From Eubacteriales bacterium (lineage in GTDB: Bacteria; Bacillota; Clostridia; Oscillospirales; CAG-272), in NCBI GenBank assembly GCA_045127455.1, contig JBGVQK010000026.1, positions 3,066-67,065 on the forward strand: 64,000 bases of DNA, read 5' to 3'. Below are positions 3,408 through 28,909 of the stretch, in pieces (position 1 is the stretch's first letter; each line of letters starts with the position of its first letter). The notes beneath the pieces were generated by a model. It saw only the letters and a program-made list of their open reading frames with translations, had not been told where the DNA came from and ran no database searches. The translations under genes were made by a program, and so were the position numbers.

Positions 3408-3845
3408 ATGCTTCGTGAAAAATCCTGCGGTGCGCTTGTGGTGCGTCGCGATGAAGAGGATGGAAAACAATATCTTTTGATGATACGGCACAAGCTTGGC
3501 GGTCACCGTTCTTTCCCCAAGGGACATATGGAGCCGGGTGAGACCGAGTATATGACGGCTGTGCGCGAGGTTTTTGAAGAGACCGCCGTACAGATCCGCA
3601 TCGACTGCAAATTCCGCGAGACCGTGCATTACAATCCCATGCCGGGTGTTTCCAAAGAGGTCGTGTACTTCTTAACGCACACGAACCAAAAGAACATCAA
3701 GGCTCGCGAGGGAGAGATCGCGCAGGTTGAGTGGGTTCCGCTCGAGCAGGTCGAAAATTCTCTCACGCACGAGAATGATAAAGTTGTATTCCGCTCCGCA
3801 ATGAAGGTTTTGCAAGCCGACGAGCAGCTCGAGGCAAAGGGATAA
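3408..3845 (+). CDS. NUDIX hydrolase
   Basis: 145 aa with a Nudix box GHMEPGETEYMTAVREVFEETAV (G-x5-E-x7-REUxEExGU). Confidence 0.85.
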   Translation: MLREKSCGALVVRRDEEDGKQYLLMIRHKLGGHRSFPKGHMEPGETEYMTAVREVFEETAVQIRIDCKFRETVHYNPMPGVSKEVVYFLTHTNQKNIKAREGEIAQVEWVPLEQVENSLTHENDKVVFRSAMKVLQADEQLEAKG

Positions 3846-4023
3846 GAATTCTTTGCCGTGTGCACATTTTTTCCACACATCGCATATATTGTAGTACCAC
3901 AATTGGTAGGGAAAGGATACATCGCGATGAAAATGATAGTATGGCGCGCCCCCGCGTTTTTAGCCCCACTGCTTCAAAAGCTGTTCGGCAAGCGCAAACC
4001 CAAAAAGAAAAACGAATAAAAAG

Positions 4024-17980: not shown

Positions 17981-18009
17981 TTGACTTGCTTTCAAATATG
18001 TGATATACT
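17981..18009 (+). promoter_or_regulatory. sigma-A promoter of the 7TM-LuxR gene
   Basis: TTGACT, 17-nt spacer, TATACT with an upstream TG. Confidence 0.65.
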
Positions 18010-18057: not shown

Positions 18058-19011
18058 ATGGTTATAACCTATGCTATTATGGCGGTTATCGCTACGATCT
18101 TGTTGCTTGGCTATTGCGGTCTTGTGCGCAAAAAAGAGCCATGGTTGCTCCTTTTGTACGTTTGCGTTACTGTTGTAAACGTAGGCTACTTTTTGCTTTC
18201 TATCTCCAAAACCGTCGAGTTTGCCATTTTTGCAAACGACCTTGTTTATCTTGGCAGCGTTTTTCTTTCCACCGCAATGCTTTTCACCATTGCCAAGCTG
18301 TGCGGCTTTGCGCTCAAAAAGAATGTGATAATCATATCGCTTCTTATTGACGTGGCGATGTTTGCCATTATTGCCACGTCGGGATTTTTGCCGTTGTACT
18401 ACAAAGAGGTCACTTTGGTCTTTGTTGACGGTGCGGCAAAGCTTGAAAAAGTGTACGGTATCCTTCACCCCACATATCTCTTTTATCTGCTTGCTTATTT
18501 TGCAGCAATGGTTGCGTGCATTGTGCAATCCGTACGCAAAAAAATGATAGCATCTCAAAAGTACGCCGTTTTGCTCACTGCCATTGTGTTTGGCAACATT
18601 GCAGTGTGGTTGGTTGAAAAATTCATCCCTTGGAATTTTGAATTTCTTTCAGTCTCCTATCTGTTCAGCGAAATTGTTTTGCTTGGACTTTATTGGATGA
18701 TGCAAGACTACATCCGCGCAGATCTTGTTCCCAAGCCTTCACCTGCAGAGGTTCGTGCCGCGGCAATCGACGTTGCCACAATGCCAATGGAAGAAAAGAT
18801 ATTAAAGGTGCTCTCCTTCCTCAAGCCCGGCGAAATGCTGACGGCAAGAGAGCGAGAAATACTCGAATTGGTCCTGCAAAACAAAAAGAGAAAAGAGATC
18901 GCCGAGGCACTTTGCCTCTCGGAAAACACCATTAAGACCTACACCCGAACGCTATACGGCAAGGTTGGTGTCGGCTCACGCGAGGAGCTTTACGCATTAC
19001 TCATTAAATAA
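18058..19011 (+). CDS. membrane-tethered LuxR/FixJ-family transcription regulator (7 TM helices plus a C-terminal HTH)
   Basis: There are seven hydrophobic helices in residues 1-225. The C-terminal LTAREREILELVLQNKKRKEIAEALCLSENTIKTYTRTLYGKVGVGSREEL is a GerE/LuxR-type HTH. No receiver or kinase motif is present. Confidence 0.8.
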   Translation: MVITYAIMAVIATILLLGYCGLVRKKEPWLLLLYVCVTVVNVGYFLLSISKTVEFAIFANDLVYLGSVFLSTAMLFTIAKLCGFALKKNVIIISLLIDVAMFAIIATSGFLPLYYKEVTLVFVDGAAKLEKVYGILHPTYLFYLLAYFAAMVACIVQSVRKKMIASQKYAVLLTAIVFGNIAVWLVEKFIPWNFEFLSVSYLFSEIVLLGLYWMMQDYIRADLVPKPSPAEVRAAAIDVATMPMEEKILKVLSFLKPGEMLTAREREILELVLQNKKRKEIAEALCLSENTIKTYTRTLYGKVGVGSREELYALLIK

Positions 19012-19017
19012 ACGTCC

Positions 19018-19060
19018 AAAAGGGCGGCAGAGCAATCTGCCGCCCTTTTTGCGTTTTTTG
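19018..19060 (+). terminator. intrinsic terminator after the regulator gene
   Basis: aaagggcggcag-agcaat-ctgccgcccttt followed by a T-run. Confidence 0.85.
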
Positions 19061-19065
19061 AGGCA

Positions 19066-19116
19066 TTTTCACCCTTTTTTCACCCCTTTTTCCATTATTT
19101 TCACCCCAAAGGGGTG
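19066..19116 (+). promoter_or_regulatory. operator-like array: three TTTTCACCC(C) direct repeats, the last forming the palindrome CACCCC-AAA-GGGGTG
   Basis: The repeats start at 19066, 19077 and 19098, a spacing of 11 and 21 nt. A perfect 15-bp palindrome occupies 19102-19116. Confidence 0.55.
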
Positions 19117-19137
19117 TACCAAAGGCGTTTTTATCTA

Positions 19138-19146
19138 TGATAAAAT
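19138..19146 (+). promoter_or_regulatory. extended -10 element (TGaTAAAAT) with no good -35
   Basis: The hexamer 17 nt upstream is ACCAAA, a 2/6 match to TTGACA. This suggests an activator-dependent promoter for the 19201-28909 operon. Confidence 0.45.
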
Positions 19147-19200
19147 GTACGTGTGATAGAATCGACAACTATCAAAAAAAAGAAAATGGAGGTGGTGAAT

Positions 19201-19641
19201 ATGACCCGCAAGCGAATTCTGTTTGACGAATTTGAGTTTCCACGGGTGAGCGGACTTGAATATCTGCTTGACGAAGGAAAGAGCGTTACAAATTACCTGT
19301 TTGTAAGCGACCGTCACGACGGCTTTTCGATGTACTTTGAAAACGGCTTCCCAATATTCAAGGTGCCCGAAAGCGGGGAACGCTCTTACTGCTTGTTCGA
19401 AATGAAGCGCCCTGATCGGATCATCAAATTCTTCTGCCCCGAAAAACACAAAAATTTAAGCCACGTTGTGTGGTACTTCTACGTAGAGCTCTTTGACGAG
19501 CGGGGAGTGGTACACAAGCTACCGGGGCAGGTAAGGGTGCGACGAAGGGAACCTCTTTTGCGTACTCTCGGAACTGAAAAACCGAAATTCCTCGAAATAC
19601 TTGAGCAGGTAACCCTAAACAAGCTACCCGTTGCAACTTGA
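19201..19641 (+). CDS. small soluble protein of unknown function, coupled to the giant surface-protein gene
   Basis: 146 aa from the ATG behind a GGAGGTGG RBS. It has no signal peptide and no recognised motif. Its stop lies 31 nt before the next start. Confidence 0.55.
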   Translation: MTRKRILFDEFEFPRVSGLEYLLDEGKSVTNYLFVSDRHDGFSMYFENGFPIFKVPESGERSYCLFEMKRPDRIIKFFCPEKHKNLSHVVWYFYVELFDERGVVHKLPGQVRVRRREPLLRTLGTEKPKFLEILEQVTLNKLPVAT

Positions 19642-19672: not shown

Positions 19673-22600
19673 ATGAAAAAAACAAGAAGATTTTTGCAAA
19701 TCATCTCCGTCATGCTGCTTTGCATGGCAATGATCGCAGGTGTTATGACGATTTCCGCTTCGGCAGATAGCGTTGTCACCTCGGTTGTAGTCAACGGAGA
19801 GACCTTGAACGAAGAAAAGCCATACTTGATCAATAAGGATGGCGTGTACGTTGCCGATGATGGCGAGCTGCTTGCTTCCTATTCTTGGGTAGCGCAGTTT
19901 AATGCCGCCGAGGGCGTGCTCGTGCTCAACAATTATAACGGTGGCGCGATTTCCACCACCGCCACGGGCGATCTCACCATCAAGCTGATGGGCGAGAACA
20001 CCATTAAGCATGATGCCATTGGTATTCAAATGGCGCAAGGCGGAAATTTGACCATTACCGCCGATGCGGCGGCAACGCTGGATATTCAAAGCATCCCCTC
20101 TACGTCTCATGCCGATGAGGCGGACCACTATGTGGGAATTGACAACAACTTTGAAAACGGCTATGCGACAACTGAAAAATCAGGCGATAGTGTTACCATT
20201 CAGGGATATGCCGCCGTTTCGATCAGCTCTACCAAAACCTATAAAAGTGGTAGTGTCAACGGCATTGGCGCATACGGAAGCGTTATGGTTTTGGGAAATG
20301 CAAGCTTGAATATTACCGAAACCAACGCCTACACCAGTCTCGCAAGGGGCATTTATTCCCTTGGGGGCGCAATTGTTATCAACACCACGGGCGACGTAAA
20401 TATTGCGGTTTGCGGTGAGGCGAGCTATAACGTTGGCGAAAACGTGTTCCGTGCCGCAAGTGGAGCCGTTCTTGGTAGAGTGGGTAAGATGACTCTCGAT
20501 TGGACTTACCCCGAGTTTTATGAAGAATCCGAGGTTGAACTTGATGCCGAGCTGAGCAGTTATGTGATCGGCACGATCCCCGAGGATGACACCAGCGCGA
20601 CTTATGGGTACAAATTCCCGATCACCGTTACAGGCGGTGTTGCAAAAATGGGGGATGATGTTGTTGAAGTTGCCGCAAAGGGTGAAACTGTCACCGTAGT
20701 GGCAGATGAACCCGAAGCAGGTCAGGGCTTCTACCAATGGAGCATCCTCAATGAGGCAGCAATTACCTTTGTCGACGAAAAAGCGGCAACCACAACCTTT
20801 GAAATGATTGCCGGTAGCGTTGAGCTGGAAGCGCTCTTTACACCTGCTTATACGATTACCGCCAACAATGCTACCGCAAGTGCAGGCAGTGCGGTATCGG
20901 GCAGTGTTGTTACCGTTACTGCAGATGCTCCCCAAAAGGGCTATCAGTTTGCGGGCTGGACGGTTCAATCCGGTGGAGTCGTGCTCTCCGACCCTGCAAG
21001 CTCTACAACCTCTTTTGTGGTGGGAGATGCCGCTGTTGAGATTACCGCAACCTACATGGCAACTCCATATTTCATTACCGTCAATGGCGGTGAGGCAAGC
21101 ATAGATGATGCACCTGTTAGCGAAGCGAGCATTGCAGATACCGTTACGCTTGTAGCTGATACTCCCCCCGCAGGGAAGGCGTTTAAAGAGTGGGTGATCG
21201 TATCGGGTGAGGGAACTATTACCGATCCTACGGCAACTACCACAACGCTTACAGGCGTTTTTGGCGATATTGAGATCGAAGCAACCTACGAGGATGCTAT
21301 CTATACAATTACCGTTACCGATGGCACAGCAAACGTTGAGGGCGCAAAGATGGGCGCTGAGATCACCATTACCGCGGCTGAAGCGGCAAAGGGTTATCAG
21401 TTTGCAGGATGGACGGTCGTATCGGGCGGCGTTACGCTTGCAAACCCTGCAAACGCAACCACAACCTTTACGGTTGTCAGTGCAAACGTAGAGGTCAAAG
21501 CAAACTATGCCCCCATCGAATACACGATCGAGGTTACCAACGGTCAAGCAAAGATCGATGATACCCCCGTTACCAAAGCAACTATCATCGATACCGTTAC
21601 TCTTGTGGCAAACACTCCTGCCGCAGGCAAGGTATTTAAGGAGTGGGTCATTGTATCGGGTGAGGGAACTCTTGCCAATGCAACAGATGCTACAACAACC
21701 TTGACAGGTCTATTTGGCAATCTTATGGTTCAGGCAACCTACGAGGATGCCACCTACACCATTACCGTAACAGGCGGTACGGCAAGTGCCCAGACTGCAA
21801 AAATGGGTGACGAGATCACCATCACCGCAGAGGCGATCGCGGGCAAGACCTTTACGTCTTGGACACTTTCCAGCGGCGGTGTAACGCTCGATAGCGCAAC
21901 CTCTGCTACCACCACCTTTGTAGTTGGCACCGAGAACGTTGAACTTGTTGCAAACTACACCTTTACCGATTACAGCGTTTCCATTAAGGATGGAAAGGGA
22001 ACTGTCAACTATATTGATAACGGAATTACCGATGCAAATATCGGGGATTCGATCTATATCGTTGCAGACGATCCCGCATCCGGCTACGCGTTCATTCGTT
22101 GGGACGTGCTCTCCGGTGAGATCGAATTGGAGGATCCCACCTCATACTACACCATCTTCACGATGACCGCAGGCAACGTAGAGCTTGAGGCTGTATATGC
22201 CGAGATCGTGGTATTGGATAAATTGGAATTTACGGTCACGCCTCCTGCAGTAGGCGCACATCCCACGTTTGAGCTCGTTTCCAAGGATCCTGCAAAATAC
22301 GGAAGTGAGTACGTTAGCATTTCTTTGAACGATTCTCCTTATACAGAGCTTGGCGCTGAGGATACGTATATGCTTGGTCACTCGTATCGCCTGCAATTCC
22401 AACTCGTTCTTGCAAACGGTTATGAGATCGATGGAAACACAAAGGTATACGTCAACGGAGAAGAGACGAGCAGAAGTCTCCCGTTGTGGTTCTACTACTT
22501 TGAATTTCCCGTTTCGATCACCGTGATCAACGGTAAGGCGTATGAAGATAGCGCCCGTACCGTAGAGATCACCGAGGGCTTGAGCCAATACGTTTATCTC

Positions 22601-25600
22601 AAGGCAGACGAGGTTCCCGAAGGAAAGGTCTTTTTGGGATGGATCGTAAAATCCGGTGACGTAACGATCTATTCGCCGAACTACAAGGACTCCGCGTACT
22701 TCTATTTGAAAAATGAACCCGTAACTGTTGAAGCAGTGATTGTAGATGTACTCGAGGAAGTTGTTCTTACTGTAACAACTCCCAAGCCCGGCGATCTTGC
22801 AACCATTGAGATCACCTCTGCCGATCCCTCCAAATACACGGCGGAGCTGATTGATTTTTACATTAACAAGTCCCCCTACACACACTTGAATCCCACCGAT
22901 CCCTTTGAGTATGGCAGATCTTACACTATGCAGTTCGAGATCATTGCCGCCGAAGGCTATGCCGTTGCAGAAGGTACCGTTGTTACCGTAAACGGTGATG
23001 AGACCTACGGCTATGGCGGAGATATTACGGGATATGAAAAGCAAAGATGGAGCTTTGAGCTTCCCGTTTCCATTACCGTTATAAACGGCAAGGCGTATAC
23101 CTCAAGCGAATACACCGAAGAGATCGTTGAATTTTACAGTCCCGGAAGCCTCTTCATCAAAGCAGACGAAGCACCCGAGGGTAAAGAATTTTTGATGTGG
23201 AAGATCACCATGGACGGTGACATTACCTATAACCATTACAACCCAACAAACATTTGGGTAGGTAGTGCCTCGGTTGTCGTTTGTGAGGCGATCTACGCCA
23301 TTCCGATCAACACGATCGAGTTGACGATGCCCAAAATAACGGTTGGTAGCACGCCCATCACCACCGTTACCACCGAAAGCGATCTTTACACGGTAGAGGT
23401 TGAAGCGTGGTACAACGTCGGGGATACGCGCGTCCAAATGCTGCCCACCGATACTTACGTAGCAGATGCATTCTATGAGTGCAGATTCATCATTACTCCT
23501 AAGGATGGGTACTGTGTAGGCAATCACGCCAAGATCAGCGTAAACGGCAAGACGGGAAACACCGGCGGTTACCATGTTGGAACCGCAATAATCGGTGCTT
23601 ACGTGCAGCTGTATGATCTGATCCCTGTTGGTATTGAGGTCACAGGCGGCAAGCTCTATCTTGACGGCGTAGAGACCAACGAGACCGAGTTCCTCCCCGG
23701 TACCACCCTGACGTTGGTTGCAGATAAGAGCCTTTATCCCGAAGGTGAAACCTTTACAAGGTGGTATTTCCCGTCGTACTCTTCTACTTTGATCAAATAT
23801 ACCGACGAAAGAGCCGAAAGCTTTACCTTTACCATTTGCGAACCGCCTGCCAGAGACCGCATGGTTACTATGGAAGCACAGTATGCGGCACTCACCTCTG
23901 TTTATTACCTCGACACCTACGTACCGCACCCCGTTGTTGGCGGAACCCCATCCTATGATGCAGGTGTTAACAAATGGCAGAACTACTTTGCTGAGGTGCT
24001 TGCTTGGTATGAGGGCGAAACTCTTTTGGAGACAGATCACGTATTTGAGGCAGGCAAGACCTACACCGTAAAAATTCGTCTCGAGCCCGCCCCCGGCTAT
24101 TACTTCCCGCCGTTGGATTTCGAGTATCTGCGTGCCGATAACACCTTTAGCGGCAACAGTGCGGACGGAATTTTCCTTGAGCGTGGCGAAAATGGCGAAT
24201 ACATCATCTTTGAATCCTCCATTACGGCAAAACAATTCCAAGAGAATATATCCGTAACCGTTACAACACCCGTTGCAGGTATGCTTCCCAGCGACGTTGT
24301 AGAAAAGGACGGCGACGTCAATTGCGACGTAGAGTTTGGCGGTTGGCTATACTGGGACGAAGAAAAGGGAATGTACGTTGCATTGGCAGAGGGCGAACGC
24401 TTTGAGGTTGGCAAGACCTACCGCGTTGACGTCGAGTTCGCATCCAACGATACCTACTTTATTGATTACAACAATATCACAGCTCTTATCAACGGCAAAA
24501 AACCCGTCCGCTTTAGCAGCGGAAACAAGGATGGCGGACTTTGCACTGTTGGATACTATTTGGAGTTTGCCGTAGAGGCAGATGGTTCAACCTTTGACCT
24601 CGAAGTAGAAAACGGCAGCGCAACCGTTGACGAAGCCCCCGTTACCGAGGTCGGCGGCGGTATCGTAGTCACCATCACCGCAGACGCTCCCGAGGACGGC
24701 AAGGCGTTCAAGGGTTGGGTCGTTGTCAGCGGCGAAAGTGTTGTATTCGTCGATGCAACTGCATCCACTACCACCTTTGTAATGCCCGCAGGCAACGTTA
24801 GAATTCAAGCGGTTTACCGCAATATTCCTTATACCATTACCGTAGTGGACGGTGAAGCAGACCTGAGTGAGGCAGGCAGCGGTGAAACGGTTACCGTTAC
24901 GGCAGGCGAGGCTCCCGACGGCAAGTATTTTGCAGGCTGGGAATGCACCGCAGGCGGCGTAACCTTTACAGATGAAACTGCAAAGACTACCACGTTTGTT
25001 ATGACAGGTGAAGCTGTTACCGTCAAGGCGGTTTATGCCGACAAGATCGTTTTGGAAGAAATGGAATTCACCATTCCCGCTCCCGCATACGGAGAGAATC
25101 CTTCCTACGTGATCACCTCCAAGGATCCCGAAAAGTATACGGCAACGGTTGCATATTGGTATCGCAATTCTGACAGCGAAGATCTGACTCCCGAAAGCAC
25201 ATTTGCATACGGAGAGGGATATACCATTCGCTTTACCATTGCAGCATCCGAAAAATACACGTTTAACTATAACACCACCATCCTTCTCAATGGTGAGGAA
25301 TGTGGTTCCTATGGTTTAACAGGTCGTCAATACACGCTGTTCCAAATTCCCGTTCCCATTACAATTGAGGGTGGCACGGCATTTGATACAAGCAGCAATC
25401 CGATTGACGCACAAGTCAACGGCTTCTACGTAAAGCTCAAAGTGGGCGAGATCCCCGCAGGCAAGAGCTTCTCGCATTGGGAGGTTGTCAGCGGCAACGT
25501 TACTCTGTATTCGCCTACCTCTCTCGATGGTGCATACTTCTACATTGGCAAAGAGCCAGTTGAAATTCGTGCGATCTATCACACGCATACCTACGATGAT

Positions 25601-28600
25601 ACCTATAAATCCAATGCTACACACCATTGGCATGAATGCACCGATCCCGCTTGCACCGACAAAGAGGGCAGCATCAAGGATAAGGTAGAGCACACATGGG
25701 ATAACACCTGTGACACCGCATGTAACGATTGCGGACATACTCGCGATATCACACATACCTATAGCGATTATATTCCTCAAAAGGATGCAAACTGTATCGA
25801 AACGGGTATGAAGGCGCATTACGAGTGCTCGGTATGCCATGCACTCTTTGACACAAGCTTCAACGCTACCACCGAGCAAGCGTTGACCATTGCTATCAAC
25901 GATTCTCACAGCTTTGGCGATTGGGCATCCAATGGCGACGGCACGCACACAAGAGTTTGCTCGCGCAACAACGAGCACACCGAAACCGACGATTGCGAGG
26001 GCGGTACCGCAACTTGTGTTGCAAAAGCAATTTGTTCCACTTGCGAAGCTGCTTACGGCAACCTTGGCGCACACAGCTATGGCGTCAAGATCGAGGAGGT
26101 TCCCACCACCCACACCAAGGATACTCTTACACAGGGTGTTAAGGCACACTTCCAATGCGGCCTTTGCGCAAAGTATTTCGACGAGGGCAAAAACCCCGTT
26201 GATTACGAAGATCTTATTATCCCCGCGCCCACTCACGTCTACGGTGAATGGATCAAGGATAACGACAACCACTGGAAGACTTGCGAATGCGGCAAGAAGG
26301 ATCAGCTTGGCGAGCACGTTTACGACGATGAAGCCGATATGATCTGTAACACTTGTAGCTACGATCGCACCGCTCCGCACACCCATGGTGATGGCGAAAA
26401 GGTAAACGGTCAGGCAGCAACCTGCACCACCGACGGTTGGAAAGACTACTATCAATGCTCCTGCGGTCACATTTATACCGATAAGGATTGCACAAACGAA
26501 ATTACCAGCCTTGTTGACTGGAAGGCAGGCGAGGGCAAGATCGCGGCAGCACATACGCTGGGCGACCCCATCGCGGCAGTAGAGGCTAACTGTACCGAAA
26601 AGGGTATGCAGCAGCACCGCAAGTGCTCTGTTTGCGGCACTCTGTTCGATATGGACGGCAACGTAAGAAGCGCCGAGGAGCTTTCCATTGCAACCAACGG
26701 CAAACACGCTTACGGTGCTTGGGCATCCAACGGCGATGGCACGCACACAAGAATCTGCTCGCACAACAACGAGCACAAGGAGACCGTTGCTTGCGCAGGC
26801 GGCACCGCTACCTGCACCGAAGCGGCAGTTTGCTCCACTTGTAACACCGCTTATGGCGAGGCCAACGGACACGATTATAGCGAAGCAACCTGTACCAAGA
26901 AGGCGACCTGCTCGGTTTGTGGCGACGAAACGGGCGAGCTGAAGCCTCACGATTACAGCGAAGCGACCTGCACAAAGAAAGCTACCTGCTCGGTTTGCGG
27001 TGGCGAAACGGGCGACCTCAAGCCTCACGATTATAGCGAAGCAACCTGCACAAAGAAGGCTACCTGCTCCGTATGTGGCGCAGAAACAGGCGAATTGAAG
27101 CCTCACGATTACAGCGAAGCAACCTGTGCAAAGAAAGCAACCTGCTCGGTATGCGGTGCCGAAACCGGTGATTTTGCCGCACACAACTACGGCGATAAGA
27201 TCGAGGCAGTTCCCGCAACGCACACCAAGGATGAATTGCTGGCAGGTATGCAAGCGCACTACCATTGCGCAGTTTGCGACAAATACTTTGATGCAAATAA
27301 AAATCCCGTAGAGCAAGCAGCTCTAATCATTCCCGCACCCACGCACGTATGGGGCACTTGGGTCAAGAATGACAGCACCCACTGGAAGGCTTGCGAATGT
27401 GGCAAAAAGGATCAAGAGGGCGCACACGTTTACGATAACGTAACCGATATGCTCTGTAACACCTGTAACTACGACCGCACCGCTCCGCACACTCACGGAG
27501 ATGGAGAAAAGGTCAACGGTCAAGCAGCTACCTGCACAACCGACGGTTGGAAGGATTACTATCAATGCTCCTGCGGTCACATCTACACCGAAAAGGAATG
27601 CACAAATGAAATTACAAACCTCGTTGCTTGGAAGGCAGGCGAGGGCAGAATCGCAGCAGCACACACACTTGGCGATCTGATTGCCGCAACCGAGCCCAAC
27701 TGCACGGTCGAAGGTAAAAAGGCACACTACGAGTGCTCCGTTTGCTCCACTCTCTTTGACGAGGAAAAGAACGTTAAAACAGAGAGTGAGCTGACCATCC
27801 CCACCAACGGCACACACGCCTTTGGCGCTTGGGCATCCAACGGTGACGGTACGCACACAAGAGTTTGCTCGCATAACAATGCTCACAAGGAAAGTGAAGA
27901 TTGCGCAGGCGGCACCGCTACCTGCACCGAGGCAGCGGTTTGCTCCACCTGTAACACGGCTTACGGCAAGGCTAATGGACACGACTACAGTGAAGCGACC
28001 TGCACCAAGAAAGCTACTTGCTCCGTATGTGGTGACGAGACCGGCGAATTGAAAGCGCACGATTACAGCGAGGCGACTTGCACTAAGAAGGCAACCTGCT
28101 CCGTATGTGGAGATGAAACCGGTGAATTGAAGGCACACGATTACAGTGAAGCAACTTGCACAAAGAAAGCTACTTGCTCTGTATGCGGTGACGAGACCGG
28201 TGAATTGAAGGCACACGATTACAGTGAAGCAACCTGTATCGCAAAGGCAAAATGCTCTGTATGTCAGCAAGAAACCGGTGACTTCGCAGATCACAAGTAT
28301 AGCGAAGCAACCTGCACAGCAAAAGCAAAATGCTCTGTATGTCAACAAGAGACCGGCGATTTCGCAGATCACAAGTATAGCGACGCAACCTGCACGGCAA
28401 AGGCGAAATGCTCCGTATGTCAACAAGAGACCGGTGATCTTGCAGATCACAAGTATAGCGAAGCAACCTGTACGGCAAAGGCAAAATGCTCCGTATGTCA
28501 ACAAGAGACCGGCGATTTCGCAGATCACGTTGACGCAAATGAGGACGGAAAGTGCGACGTTTGCCAGCATCAAATGAGCACAATTCCCGAACAGACAACT

Positions 28601-28909
28601 CCCGAGCCCGAACAGACCACTCCCGAGCCTGAGGGAACGACCCCCGAGCCCGAGAACCCCGAAAACCCCGACGATCAACCCGATGATCCCGAAGAGCCCA
28701 AGACGGGACTTTCCGGCGGAGCCGTTGCAGGCATCGTTATTGCTTCTACCGCAGTTGCGGGAGCCGGTGGCTTTGCAGTTTGGTGGTTCGCAATTCAAAA
28801 GCATACCGTAGCAGAGCTTGGAAGCGCCTGCAAAACGGTTGGTGGAAAGATTGGCGGTTTCTTCAAGGGCGTCTTTGAAAAAATCAAAAATCTGTTCTCC
28901 AAAAAATAA
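19673..28909 (+). CDS. giant (3078-aa) cell-surface protein with repeat modules, a Cys/His-rich stalk and a C-terminal membrane anchor
   Basis: The signal peptide is MKKTRRFLQIISVMLLCMAMIAGVMTISASA. There are 13 modules with G-x-x-F-x-x-W-x-V-x-S-G (Listeria-Bacteroides / InlB-B-repeat-like) and 6 interleaved modules of about 95 aa. A Cys/His-rich region of about 1000 aa spans 25580-28560. The C-terminus has a P/E/T linker, EPKTG, a TM helix and a cationic tail. Confidence 0.9.
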   Translation: MKKTRRFLQIISVMLLCMAMIAGVMTISASADSVVTSVVVNGETLNEEKPYLINKDGVYVADDGELLASYSWVAQFNAAEGVLVLNNYNGGAISTTATGDLTIKLMGENTIKHDAIGIQMAQGGNLTITADAAATLDIQSIPSTSHADEADHYVGIDNNFENGYATTEKSGDSVTIQGYAAVSISSTKTYKSGSVNGIGAYGSVMVLGNASLNITETNAYTSLARGIYSLGGAIVINTTGDVNIAVCGEASYNVGENVFRAASGAVLGRVGKMTLDWTYPEFYEESEVELDAELSSYVIGTIPEDDTSATYGYKFPITVTGGVAKMGDDVVEVAAKGETVTVVADEPEAGQGFYQWSILNEAAITFVDEKAATTTFEMIAGSVELEALFTPAYTITANNATASAGSAVSGSVVTVTADAPQKGYQFAGWTVQSGGVVLSDPASSTTSFVVGDAAVEITATYMATPYFITVNGGEASIDDAPVSEASIADTVTLVADTPPAGKAFKEWVIVSGEGTITDPTATTTTLTGVFGDIEIEATYEDAIYTITVTDGTANVEGAKMGAEITITAAEAAKGYQFAGWTVVSGGVTLANPANATTTFTVVSANVEVKANYAPIEYTIEVTNGQAKIDDTPVTKATIIDTVTLVANTPAAGKVFKEWVIVSGEGTLANATDATTTLTGLFGNLMVQATYEDATYTITVTGGTASAQTAKMGDEITITAEAIAGKTFTSWTLSSGGVTLDSATSATTTFVVGTENVELVANYTFTDYSVSIKDGKGTVNYIDNGITDANIGDSIYIVADDPASGYAFIRWDVLSGEIELEDPTSYYTIFTMTAGNVELEAVYAEIVVLDKLEFTVTPPAVGAHPTFELVSKDPAKYGSEYVSISLNDSPYTELGAEDTYMLGHSYRLQFQLVLANGYEIDGNTKVYVNGEETSRSLPLWFYYFEFPVSITVINGKAYEDSARTVEITEGLSQYVYLKADEVPEGKVFLGWIVKSGDVTIYSPNYKDSAYFYLKNEPVTVEAVIVDVLEEVVLTVTTPKPGDLATIEITSADPSKYTAELIDFYINKSPYTHLNPTDPFEYGRSYTMQFEIIAAEGYAVAEGTVVTVNGDETYGYGGDITGYEKQRWSFELPVSITVINGKAYTSSEYTEEIVEFYSPGSLFIKADEAPEGKEFLMWKITMDGDITYNHYNPTNIWVGSASVVVCEAIYAIPINTIELTMPKITVGSTPITTVTTESDLYTVEVEAWYNVGDTRVQMLPTDTYVADAFYECRFIITPKDGYCVGNHAKISVNGKTGNTGGYHVGTAIIGAYVQLYDLIPVGIEVTGGKLYLDGVETNETEFLPGTTLTLVADKSLYPEGETFTRWYFPSYSSTLIKYTDERAESFTFTICEPPARDRMVTMEAQYAALTSVYYLDTYVPHPVVGGTPSYDAGVNKWQNYFAEVLAWYEGETLLETDHVFEAGKTYTVKIRLEPAPGYYFPPLDFEYLRADNTFSGNSADGIFLERGENGEYIIFESSITAKQFQENISVTVTTPVAGMLPSDVVEKDGDVNCDVEFGGWLYWDEEKGMYVALAEGERFEVGKTYRVDVEFASNDTYFIDYNNITALINGKKPVRFSSGNKDGGLCTVGYYLEFAVEADGSTFDLEVENGSATVDEAPVTEVGGGIVVTITADAPEDGKAFKGWVVVSGESVVFVDATASTTTFVMPAGNVRIQAVYRNIPYTITVVDGEADLSEAGSGETVTVTAGEAPDGKYFAGWECTAGGVTFTDETAKTTTFVMTGEAVTVKAVYADKIVLEEMEFTIPAPAYGENPSYVITSKDPEKYTATVAYWYRNSDSEDLTPESTFAYGEGYTIRFTIAASEKYTFNYNTTILLNGEECGSYGLTGRQYTLFQIPVPITIEGGTAFDTSSNPIDAQVNGFYVKLKVGEIPAGKSFSHWEVVSGNVTLYSPTSLDGAYFYIGKEPVEIRAIYHTHTYDDTYKSNATHHWHECTDPACTDKEGSIKDKVEHTWDNTCDTACNDCGHTRDITHTYSDYIPQKDANCIETGMKAHYECSVCHALFDTSFNATTEQALTIAINDSHSFGDWASNGDGTHTRVCSRNNEHTETDDCEGGTATCVAKAICSTCEAAYGNLGAHSYGVKIEEVPTTHTKDTLTQGVKAHFQCGLCAKYFDEGKNPVDYEDLIIPAPTHVYGEWIKDNDNHWKTCECGKKDQLGEHVYDDEADMICNTCSYDRTAPHTHGDGEKVNGQAATCTTDGWKDYYQCSCGHIYTDKDCTNEITSLVDWKAGEGKIAAAHTLGDPIAAVEANCTEKGMQQHRKCSVCGTLFDMDGNVRSAEELSIATNGKHAYGAWASNGDGTHTRICSHNNEHKETVACAGGTATCTEAAVCSTCNTAYGEANGHDYSEATCTKKATCSVCGDETGELKPHDYSEATCTKKATCSVCGGETGDLKPHDYSEATCTKKATCSVCGAETGELKPHDYSEATCAKKATCSVCGAETGDFAAHNYGDKIEAVPATHTKDELLAGMQAHYHCAVCDKYFDANKNPVEQAALIIPAPTHVWGTWVKNDSTHWKACECGKKDQEGAHVYDNVTDMLCNTCNYDRTAPHTHGDGEKVNGQAATCTTDGWKDYYQCSCGHIYTEKECTNEITNLVAWKAGEGRIAAAHTLGDLIAATEPNCTVEGKKAHYECSVCSTLFDEEKNVKTESELTIPTNGTHAFGAWASNGDGTHTRVCSHNNAHKESEDCAGGTATCTEAAVCSTCNTAYGKANGHDYSEATCTKKATCSVCGDETGELKAHDYSEATCTKKATCSVCGDETGELKAHDYSEATCTKKATCSVCGDETGELKAHDYSEATCIAKAKCSVCQQETGDFADHKYSEATCTAKAKCSVCQQETGDFADHKYSDATCTAKAKCSVCQQETGDLADHKYSEATCTAKAKCSVCQQETGDFADHVDANEDGKCDVCQHQMSTIPEQTTPEPEQTTPEPEGTTPEPENPENPDDQPDDPEEPKTGLSGGAVAGIVIASTAVAGAGGFAVWWFAIQKHTVAELGSACKTVGGKIGGFFKGVFEKIKNLFSKK
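26072..28291 (+). repeat. tandem in-frame segmental duplication of about 1110 nt inside the giant gene
   Basis: The block AHSYGVKIEEVPTTHTKD... (from 26072) recurs as AHNYGDKIEAVPATHTKD... (from 27182). The two copies stay colinear for 798 nt up to the start of each 78-nt array. Confidence 0.85.
26870..27181 (+). repeat. 4 tandem 78-nt (26-aa) coding repeats, HDYSEATCTKKATCSVCG-ETG-LKP
   Basis: Copies start at 26870, 26948, 27026 and 27104. Copies 1 and 2, compared codon by codon, differ mostly at synonymous sites. Confidence 0.95.
27980..28525 (+). repeat. 7 tandem 78-nt (26-aa) coding repeats (3 TKKATC-type plus 4 AKAKC-type)
   Basis: HDYSEATCTKKATCSVCGDETGELKA occurs 3 times, followed by H(D/K)YS(E/D)ATC(I/T)AKAKCSVCQQETGD(F/L)AD 4 times. 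Confidence 0.95.

Follow-up and report, generated by a model that had tools for sequence, protein, structure and literature searches.

A strongly conserved operator-promoter lies between the gene for a 7TM-GerE one-component regulator and an operon encoding a giant surface protein in the window analysed here, a stretch of 64,000 nucleotides from a Eubacteriales bacterium. Judged by its retention in relatives the element is real, and the interpretation we prefer, with a probability of about 0.68, is that the adjacent regulator binds its palindrome and repeats and activates the sigma-A extended -10 promoter of the surface-protein operon. We infer protein binding, activation rather than repression, and the start of transcription. 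The regulator would be membrane-embedded, its HTH facing the cytoplasm, and would occupy the CACCC-N5-GGGTG palindrome as a dimer, the centre of the site being some 44 bp before the start. The two same-orientation TTTTCACCC half-sites would be taken up by additional protomers, with all sites on one face of the helix, and the bound regulator would recruit sigma-A RNA polymerase to a promoter whose -10 is TGn-extended and which lacks a -35 box. The operon of the 146-aa protein and the giant surface protein would then be switched on by a signal sensed via the 7TM bundle.

Table 1. Features of the operator region and the neighbouring genes, by position in the window
Feature	Position	Strand	Remarks
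Regulator's own promoter, TTGACT-17-TATACT with upstream TG	17981..18009	+	near-consensus; no CACCC motif
7TM-GerE one-component regulator, 317 aa	18058..19011	+	Pfam HisKA_7TM + GerE; proposed operator binder
Intrinsic terminator of regulator gene	19018..19059	+	14-bp stem, 4-nt loop, T-run
Direct half-site R1, TTTTCACCC	19066-19074	+	core 19070-19074; 32 nt 5' of palindrome left half
Direct half-site R2, TTTTCACCCC	19077..19086	+	core 19081-19085; 21 nt 5' of palindrome left half
TTTT + palindrome CACCCCAAAGGGGTG	19098..19116	.	palindrome 19102-19116, centre 19109; proposed dimer site
-35 position, ACCAAA	19118-19123	+	non-consensus
Extended -10, TGaTAAAAT	19138-19146	+	hexamer begins 24 nt past palindrome
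TGaTAGAAT	19154-19162	+	second TGn -10-like element or conserved start-of-transcript box
RBS GGAGGTG and first operon gene (ATG 19201), 146 aa	19188..19641	+	all-beta cytoplasmic protein
Giant secreted surface protein, 3078 aa (ATG 19673)	19673..28909	+	operon cargo; seven Flg_new_2 repeats

The individual elements were all found where the original prediction had placed them. Three copies of TTTTCACCC, at 19066-19074, 19077-19085 and 19098-19106 with starts 11 and 21 nt apart, lie 3' of the regulator gene terminator (19018-19049 plus a T-run), and the third runs into the perfect 15-bp palindrome at 19102-19116. The extended -10 TGaTAAAAT is present at 19138-19146, and the hexamer at the -35 position, ACCAAA (19118-19123), matches TTGACA at two of six positions. 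A chance origin of the CACCC cluster is excluded because TTTTCACCC occurs three times in the 64-kb window, every copy being in the operator block, because the exact CACCC-N5-GGGTG palindrome and the direct CACCC-N5/6-CACCC pair are each found once in the window, also in this block, and because four CACCC/GGGTG fall within 47 nt here, whereas 326 kb of related DNA gave a background, counting both strands, of 1.56 per kb. A promoter-like match on the minus strand (19122-19094) was disregarded as it points into the terminator.

Comparison between relatives proved informative about which parts of the element are fixed. When one genome per species was scanned with the regulator, 41 loci were recovered from metagenome-assembled genomes (MAGs) of ruminant and other gut Clostridia, with regulator identities of 44-82%; the family is an abundant one, with more than 2,000 regulator homologues among the candidates scored. 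Within about 4 kb of the regulator gene, 30 of these 41 species-level relatives have a single CACCC-N5-GGGTG (one of the 30 has a second copy at a contig edge), always 60-260 nt past the regulator stop and shortly after the terminator, which is at the same place in relatives. Most of the other loci have a contig edge or a one-mismatch palindrome. The palindrome is absent from L016, L032 and L036, and L034 has direct repeats only, and these exceptions weaken the preferred reading. At ~4990-5090 in L016, two copies of an unrelated 18-bp palindrome, TGTTCGCGATTGCGAACA, replace the CACCC operator 3' of the regulator. AACCC-like repeats at 11-nt spacing are found after position 4062 in L032, and L142 contains an AACCC-N5-GGGTT palindrome (3815-3860) followed by TATATA 24 nt on; the regulator helix is diverged in both cases and these elements may be diverged operators, the L142 palindrome being one that could alternatively be a terminator.

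Across 50 non-redundant sites the CACCC cores are invariant, at 2.0 bits per column, and the 5-nt loop is free to vary (0.51 bits). The centres of the two halves of the inverted repeat are 10 bp apart in every one of the 50, about the one helical turn expected of a GerE operator. Spacers between the cores drift in the palindrome-anchored alignment. The upstream CACCC copies all share one orientation and are located -11, -21/22, -32/33, -42, -53 and -63/64 nt from the left half-site, and since these offsets are multiples of ~10.6 the upstream half-sites would lie on one face of the helix. Twenty of the 30 relatives have a CACCC at -32/-33, the position of R1, and 24 have one at -21/-22, the position of R2. 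The cargo changes between relatives and the operator module is kept; comparison of the loci thus indicates that the module goes with the regulator gene rather than with the cargo.

The association also holds when the search starts from the motif. Metagenome scanning with the pattern CACCC-N5/6-CACCC-N15-17-CACCC-N5-GGGTG alone gave 98 matches, 36 of them with a -10 at the fixed distance, and in 26 of the 36 a regulator homologue 47-79% identical is encoded on the same strand and ends 41-161 nt upstream. One further match has the regulator and a degenerate -10, which brings the total with a regulator to 27. None of the 61 that lack both -10 and regulator is operator-like; they are mostly high-GC or tandem repeats, and the high-GC matches were rejected as tandem repeats or chance. 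Motif and regulator gene therefore recover each other in both search directions, and this supports the original suggestion that the adjacent 7TM-LuxR protein is a candidate activator.

The same reciprocity argues against a reader encoded elsewhere. It could be supposed that the site works through DNA shape, its phased T/A tracts forming a curved, UP-element-like region, or that an unlinked DNA-binding protein and not the adjacent regulator recognises it, and in every clade the cores are indeed set apart, at helical spacing, by T- or A-runs. It is CACCC, however, that forms the invariant part, and the tracts between the cores are T-runs in some clades and A-runs in others. The bases flanking the half-site also change with the recognition helix of the adjacent regulator, and we give this explanation only a slim chance.

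The helix itself can be placed against known structures, the nearest solved ones to the regulator HTH being GerE, DesR, LiaR, VraR and NarL. NarL makes base contacts through K188, V189 and K192. In an ungapped alignment of 35 residues the family-invariant K293 falls on NarL K188, and extension of the alignment by eye sets R297 at NarL K192 and T294, which is Met in one clade, at NarL V189. Residue 294 changes together with base -1 of the half-site. With a helix of the K-T-Y/H type, the base before CACCC is T without exception in the distal half-site and with few exceptions in the direct repeats; in the K-M-H clade the base is A. Both helix types are found in a single MAG (L033, L037), each beside its own operator variant, and the same lipoprotein-type cargo lies behind regulators with different recognition helices. 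Because the half-site flank changes with the recognition helix, this covariation, which rests on about three clades, supports the view that the adjacent protein reads the operator.

The arrangement of the promoter is as constant as the operator. TANNNT begins 23 or 24 nt past the palindrome in 48 of the 50 non-redundant sites and is preceded by TG in 34; no -35 box is conserved across the 50, and the best -35 match reaches 2-3 of 6 positions in 40 of them. A poor -35 combined with a fixed distance from palindrome to -10 is the pattern expected of an activator-dependent promoter. Numbering the -10 as -12 to -7 puts the half-site centres at -39, -49, -70 and -81 and the middle of the direct-repeat pair at about -75.5, some 31.5 bp upstream of the palindrome centre. 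The latter is at -44, within the interval of about -40 to -45 first proposed, and is held there by the 23-24 nt spacing. The box AAGATAGAAT of relatives, represented by TGaTAGAAT in the window, lies approximately 8-16 nt past the -10 and is kept among regulators of at least ~55% identity with both cargo types. At the position of TGaTAGAAT (offset 40), TANNNT occurs in 16 of 50 sites and is poorly kept as a -10; the box may be the transcript start or a second protein-binding site.

The closest precedent for this geometry is NarL, which activates E. coli ogt from sites at -44.5 and -77.5, and which on yeaR occupies -43.5 in a cryo-EM activation complex. The two systems share a GerE-type HTH, a C-rich inverted repeat (of the TACCCCT type in a 7-2-7 arrangement for NarL and CACCC-N5-GGGTG here), a proximal site near -44 (reckoned here from the -10) with a second site about three helical turns upstream, and, as judged by alignment, the Lys that contacts bases in NarL. 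They differ in that NarL is a soluble response regulator activated by phosphorylation, whereas the regulator here is without a receiver domain and is fused to seven TM helices; in addition, the half-site spacing here is 1 bp shorter and two direct repeats make up the upstream site. ComA of Bacillus subtilis (PMC4797271) is similarly a tetrahelical GerE-type activator from Firmicutes and binds cooperatively to inverted and direct repeats of one half-site, although it is a cytoplasmic response regulator with another half-site sequence and no helical-spacing array has been described for it. The NarL sites at -43.5 and -44.5, from which it activates, together with the second one at -77.5, and the use of inverted plus direct repeats by ComA, argue for the preferred reading. 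What argues against it is that NarL reaches the alpha C-terminal domain through R178 and R179 and the regulator has Glu and Ala in their place, neither Arg being conserved. The original prediction had also placed the palindrome where class II activators bind, and of this the position is supported, given the GerE-type precedents at -43.5 and -44.5; the class II mechanism is not established, as NarL in the yeaR complex makes its contact with the alpha C-terminal domain and none with sigma region 4.

The same protein on the same site could instead exert negative control, blocking or trapping polymerase at a constitutive extended -10 promoter until the signal relieves it. Extended -10 promoters do not always need a -35 box, and the TGn -10 here is a strong one; the half-site nearest the promoter directly adjoins the -35 position, and proteins of the GerE family are able to repress as well as to activate. 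A spacing as rigid as 23-24 nt, in 48 of 50 sites and again in a second regulator family, would nevertheless be expected of contact with polymerase and not of simple occlusion. In none of the relatives has the -35 position moved closer to consensus, and the location is one from which NarL activates; negative control is for us an unlikely explanation.

Transcripts were also considered. The small gene is transcribed in gut samples, being represented in assembled Logan contigs from four metatranscriptomes. One metatranscriptome contig (run X27) matches 19097-19208 with zero mismatches and takes in the -10 and the 5' UTR as well as the palindrome; read-through, contaminating DNA or an upstream start could account for it. 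RNA contigs that end at 19179/19180 do so at an A8 run, and these ends probably reflect breaks in the assembly. This contig over the operator raises the possibility of an RNA element, in which a CACCCC/GGGGUG hairpin, or R2 paired with GGGGUG, would serve as attenuator or processing site in a read-through transcript, and the fold of 19055-19135 (-17.3 kcal/mol, z = -2.6) is in keeping with it. Against this, the hairpin has no T-run behind it and a strong terminator upstream, its stem never varies and its loop is free, so that there is no covariation, and neither the same-orientation repeats nor the fixed distance to the -10 has an RNA rationale. No Rfam family was matched, the only sub-threshold matches being at the true terminator (19018-19049). 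The chance that the element acts as RNA seems to us very slight. The palindrome was likewise rejected as an intrinsic terminator or known cis-regulatory RNA, since GGGGTG is followed by TACCAAAGG with no U-run and Rfam gave no match.

The regulator has two Pfam domains, HisKA_7TM at residues 9-209 and GerE (PF00196) at 260-313 (E = 2e-14), and no kinase or receiver domain was found by Pfam. Its AF2 model (pLDDT 83) has seven TM helices, a disordered linker at 218-236 and a four-helix GerE HTH at 263-316. The basic loops RKKE, KKN and RKK are on the same side of the membrane as the C-terminus, and for this reason we infer that the HTH is cytoplasmic. With TM region and DNA-binding domain in a single polypeptide, the protein belongs to the transmembrane one-component regulators (TTR). 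A beta-hairpin predicted by AF2 in the TM4-TM5 loop is its only sizeable extracytoplasmic feature, and in the model this hairpin is a candidate surface for contact with the signal. The hairpin segment (residues 115-133; window 18400-18460) is accompanied by invariant Y114, Y115, K131, Y133 and G134. Foldseek with the regulator model returned only weak, generic 7TM matches (class C GPCR; E ~2e-3, TM-score ~0.45), and NCBIfam only sub-threshold HTH matches. The autoinducer-binding domain PF03472 was not found in the regulator, which was therefore rejected as a quorum-sensing LuxR receptor. Two relatives have an in-frame TAG in the regulator gene, at codon 184 in L026 and codon 113 in L027, where the window's regulator has Trp and Leu respectively; these could be pseudogenes or assembly errors. 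Autoregulation was rejected because the operator motif is absent 5' of the regulator gene both in the window, with no CACCC/GGGTG in the 256 nt 5' of the gene, and in relatives, 29 of which have no consistent motif there.

Membrane-spanning one-component regulators with a GerE HTH have been described in Bacteroidota, namely BguR and SusR (bioRxiv 10.64898/2026.01.10.698779). As in the present case the HTH is joined directly to the membrane part without a phosphorelay domain, the target promoter (here a proposed one) is that of the next gene and a conserved motif is found in the intergenic region between them. BguR, however, combines one TM helix with a large beta-propeller sensor in the periplasm and serves glycan-utilisation loci, whereas the regulator here is a compact 7TM bundle that exposes no more than a beta-hairpin, belongs to Clostridia and has surface proteins as its proposed targets. 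ToxR and CadC also combine membrane sensing and transcription activation in one polypeptide, and ToxR has several binding sites and anchors DNA at the membrane (PMC10629549, PMC7888679). They are no homologues of the regulator here, having an N-terminal OmpR-type winged helix ahead of a single TM helix; membership of the ToxR/CadC family was rejected on the grounds that its HTH is C-terminal, GerE-type and behind seven TM helices. We found nothing in the literature on a 7TM-GerE regulator and, for HisKA_7TM/PF16927 fused to LuxR, only archaeal histidine-kinase surveys; the text of a transmembrane-regulator survey makes no mention of GerE/LuxR types.

Among the loci from the motif-first metagenome scan, L082 (506-552 in the reoriented locus) and L139 (2514-2560) have complete operators and cargo genes with no adjacent regulator; the first operator comes after another surface-protein gene and the second after an integrase-like gene. 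Both are likely to be served in trans. As these operators lack an adjacent regulator, they suggest regulons larger than one operon and possibly mobile cargo. The grammar also extends to a second family of polytopic GerE regulators, of 449-452 aa with the helix SINTLKTHTRNIY and no match to a 7TM Pfam domain, that are divergent from a lipoprotein or small gene. In L042 the divergently transcribed protein has 449 aa and the operator, at 851-950, is followed by TATCAT exactly 24 nt past the palindrome; L140 (2330-2520) has the same layout and a 46% homologue of the L042 protein. The CACCC array, the palindrome and the 24-nt spacing are all shared, and the recurrence of this grammar in a second GerE family lends further support to activation by the adjacent regulator.

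The genes behind the operator in the window are separated by a terminator-free gap of 31 nt. The 146-aa protein has no Pfam or NCBIfam match, and its family is characterised by invariant FFCP and LPGQ motifs; its AF2 model is all-beta (pLDDT 79) with a weak Mog1/PsbP-like match (E = 3e-3). In about two-thirds of loci the small-protein gene is first behind the operator and is followed by a large protein with a signal peptide, and in the remaining third or so the operator leads straight to a large secreted protein without the small gene. The large cargo proteins have at least four unrelated N-terminal types among relatives.

It is conceivable, if doubtful, that the one-face array, with its two to six same-orientation half-sites and terminal inverted one, assembles membrane regulators side by side. 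The promoter of the giant secreted-protein operon would thereby be anchored at the membrane, and its transcription coupled to export during translation. The whole would then be a portable regulator-operator cassette with exchanged surface-protein cargo, in which paralogues within one cell might be insulated by one flank base read by one helix residue. The regulatory site is solid but unsurprising and the regulator family is unstudied. The analysis supplies this family of 7TM-GerE one-component regulators with a candidate DNA target and promoter geometry, and what these regulators seem to govern are surface proteins of very large size in uncultured Clostridia of the ruminant gut. The grammar of the site, CACCC-N5-GGGTG, 24 nt and TANNNT with phased direct repeats upstream, is usable for regulon prediction in metagenome-assembled genomes, and the arrangement as a whole would provide a compact model for the activation of transcription by a polytopic membrane protein.
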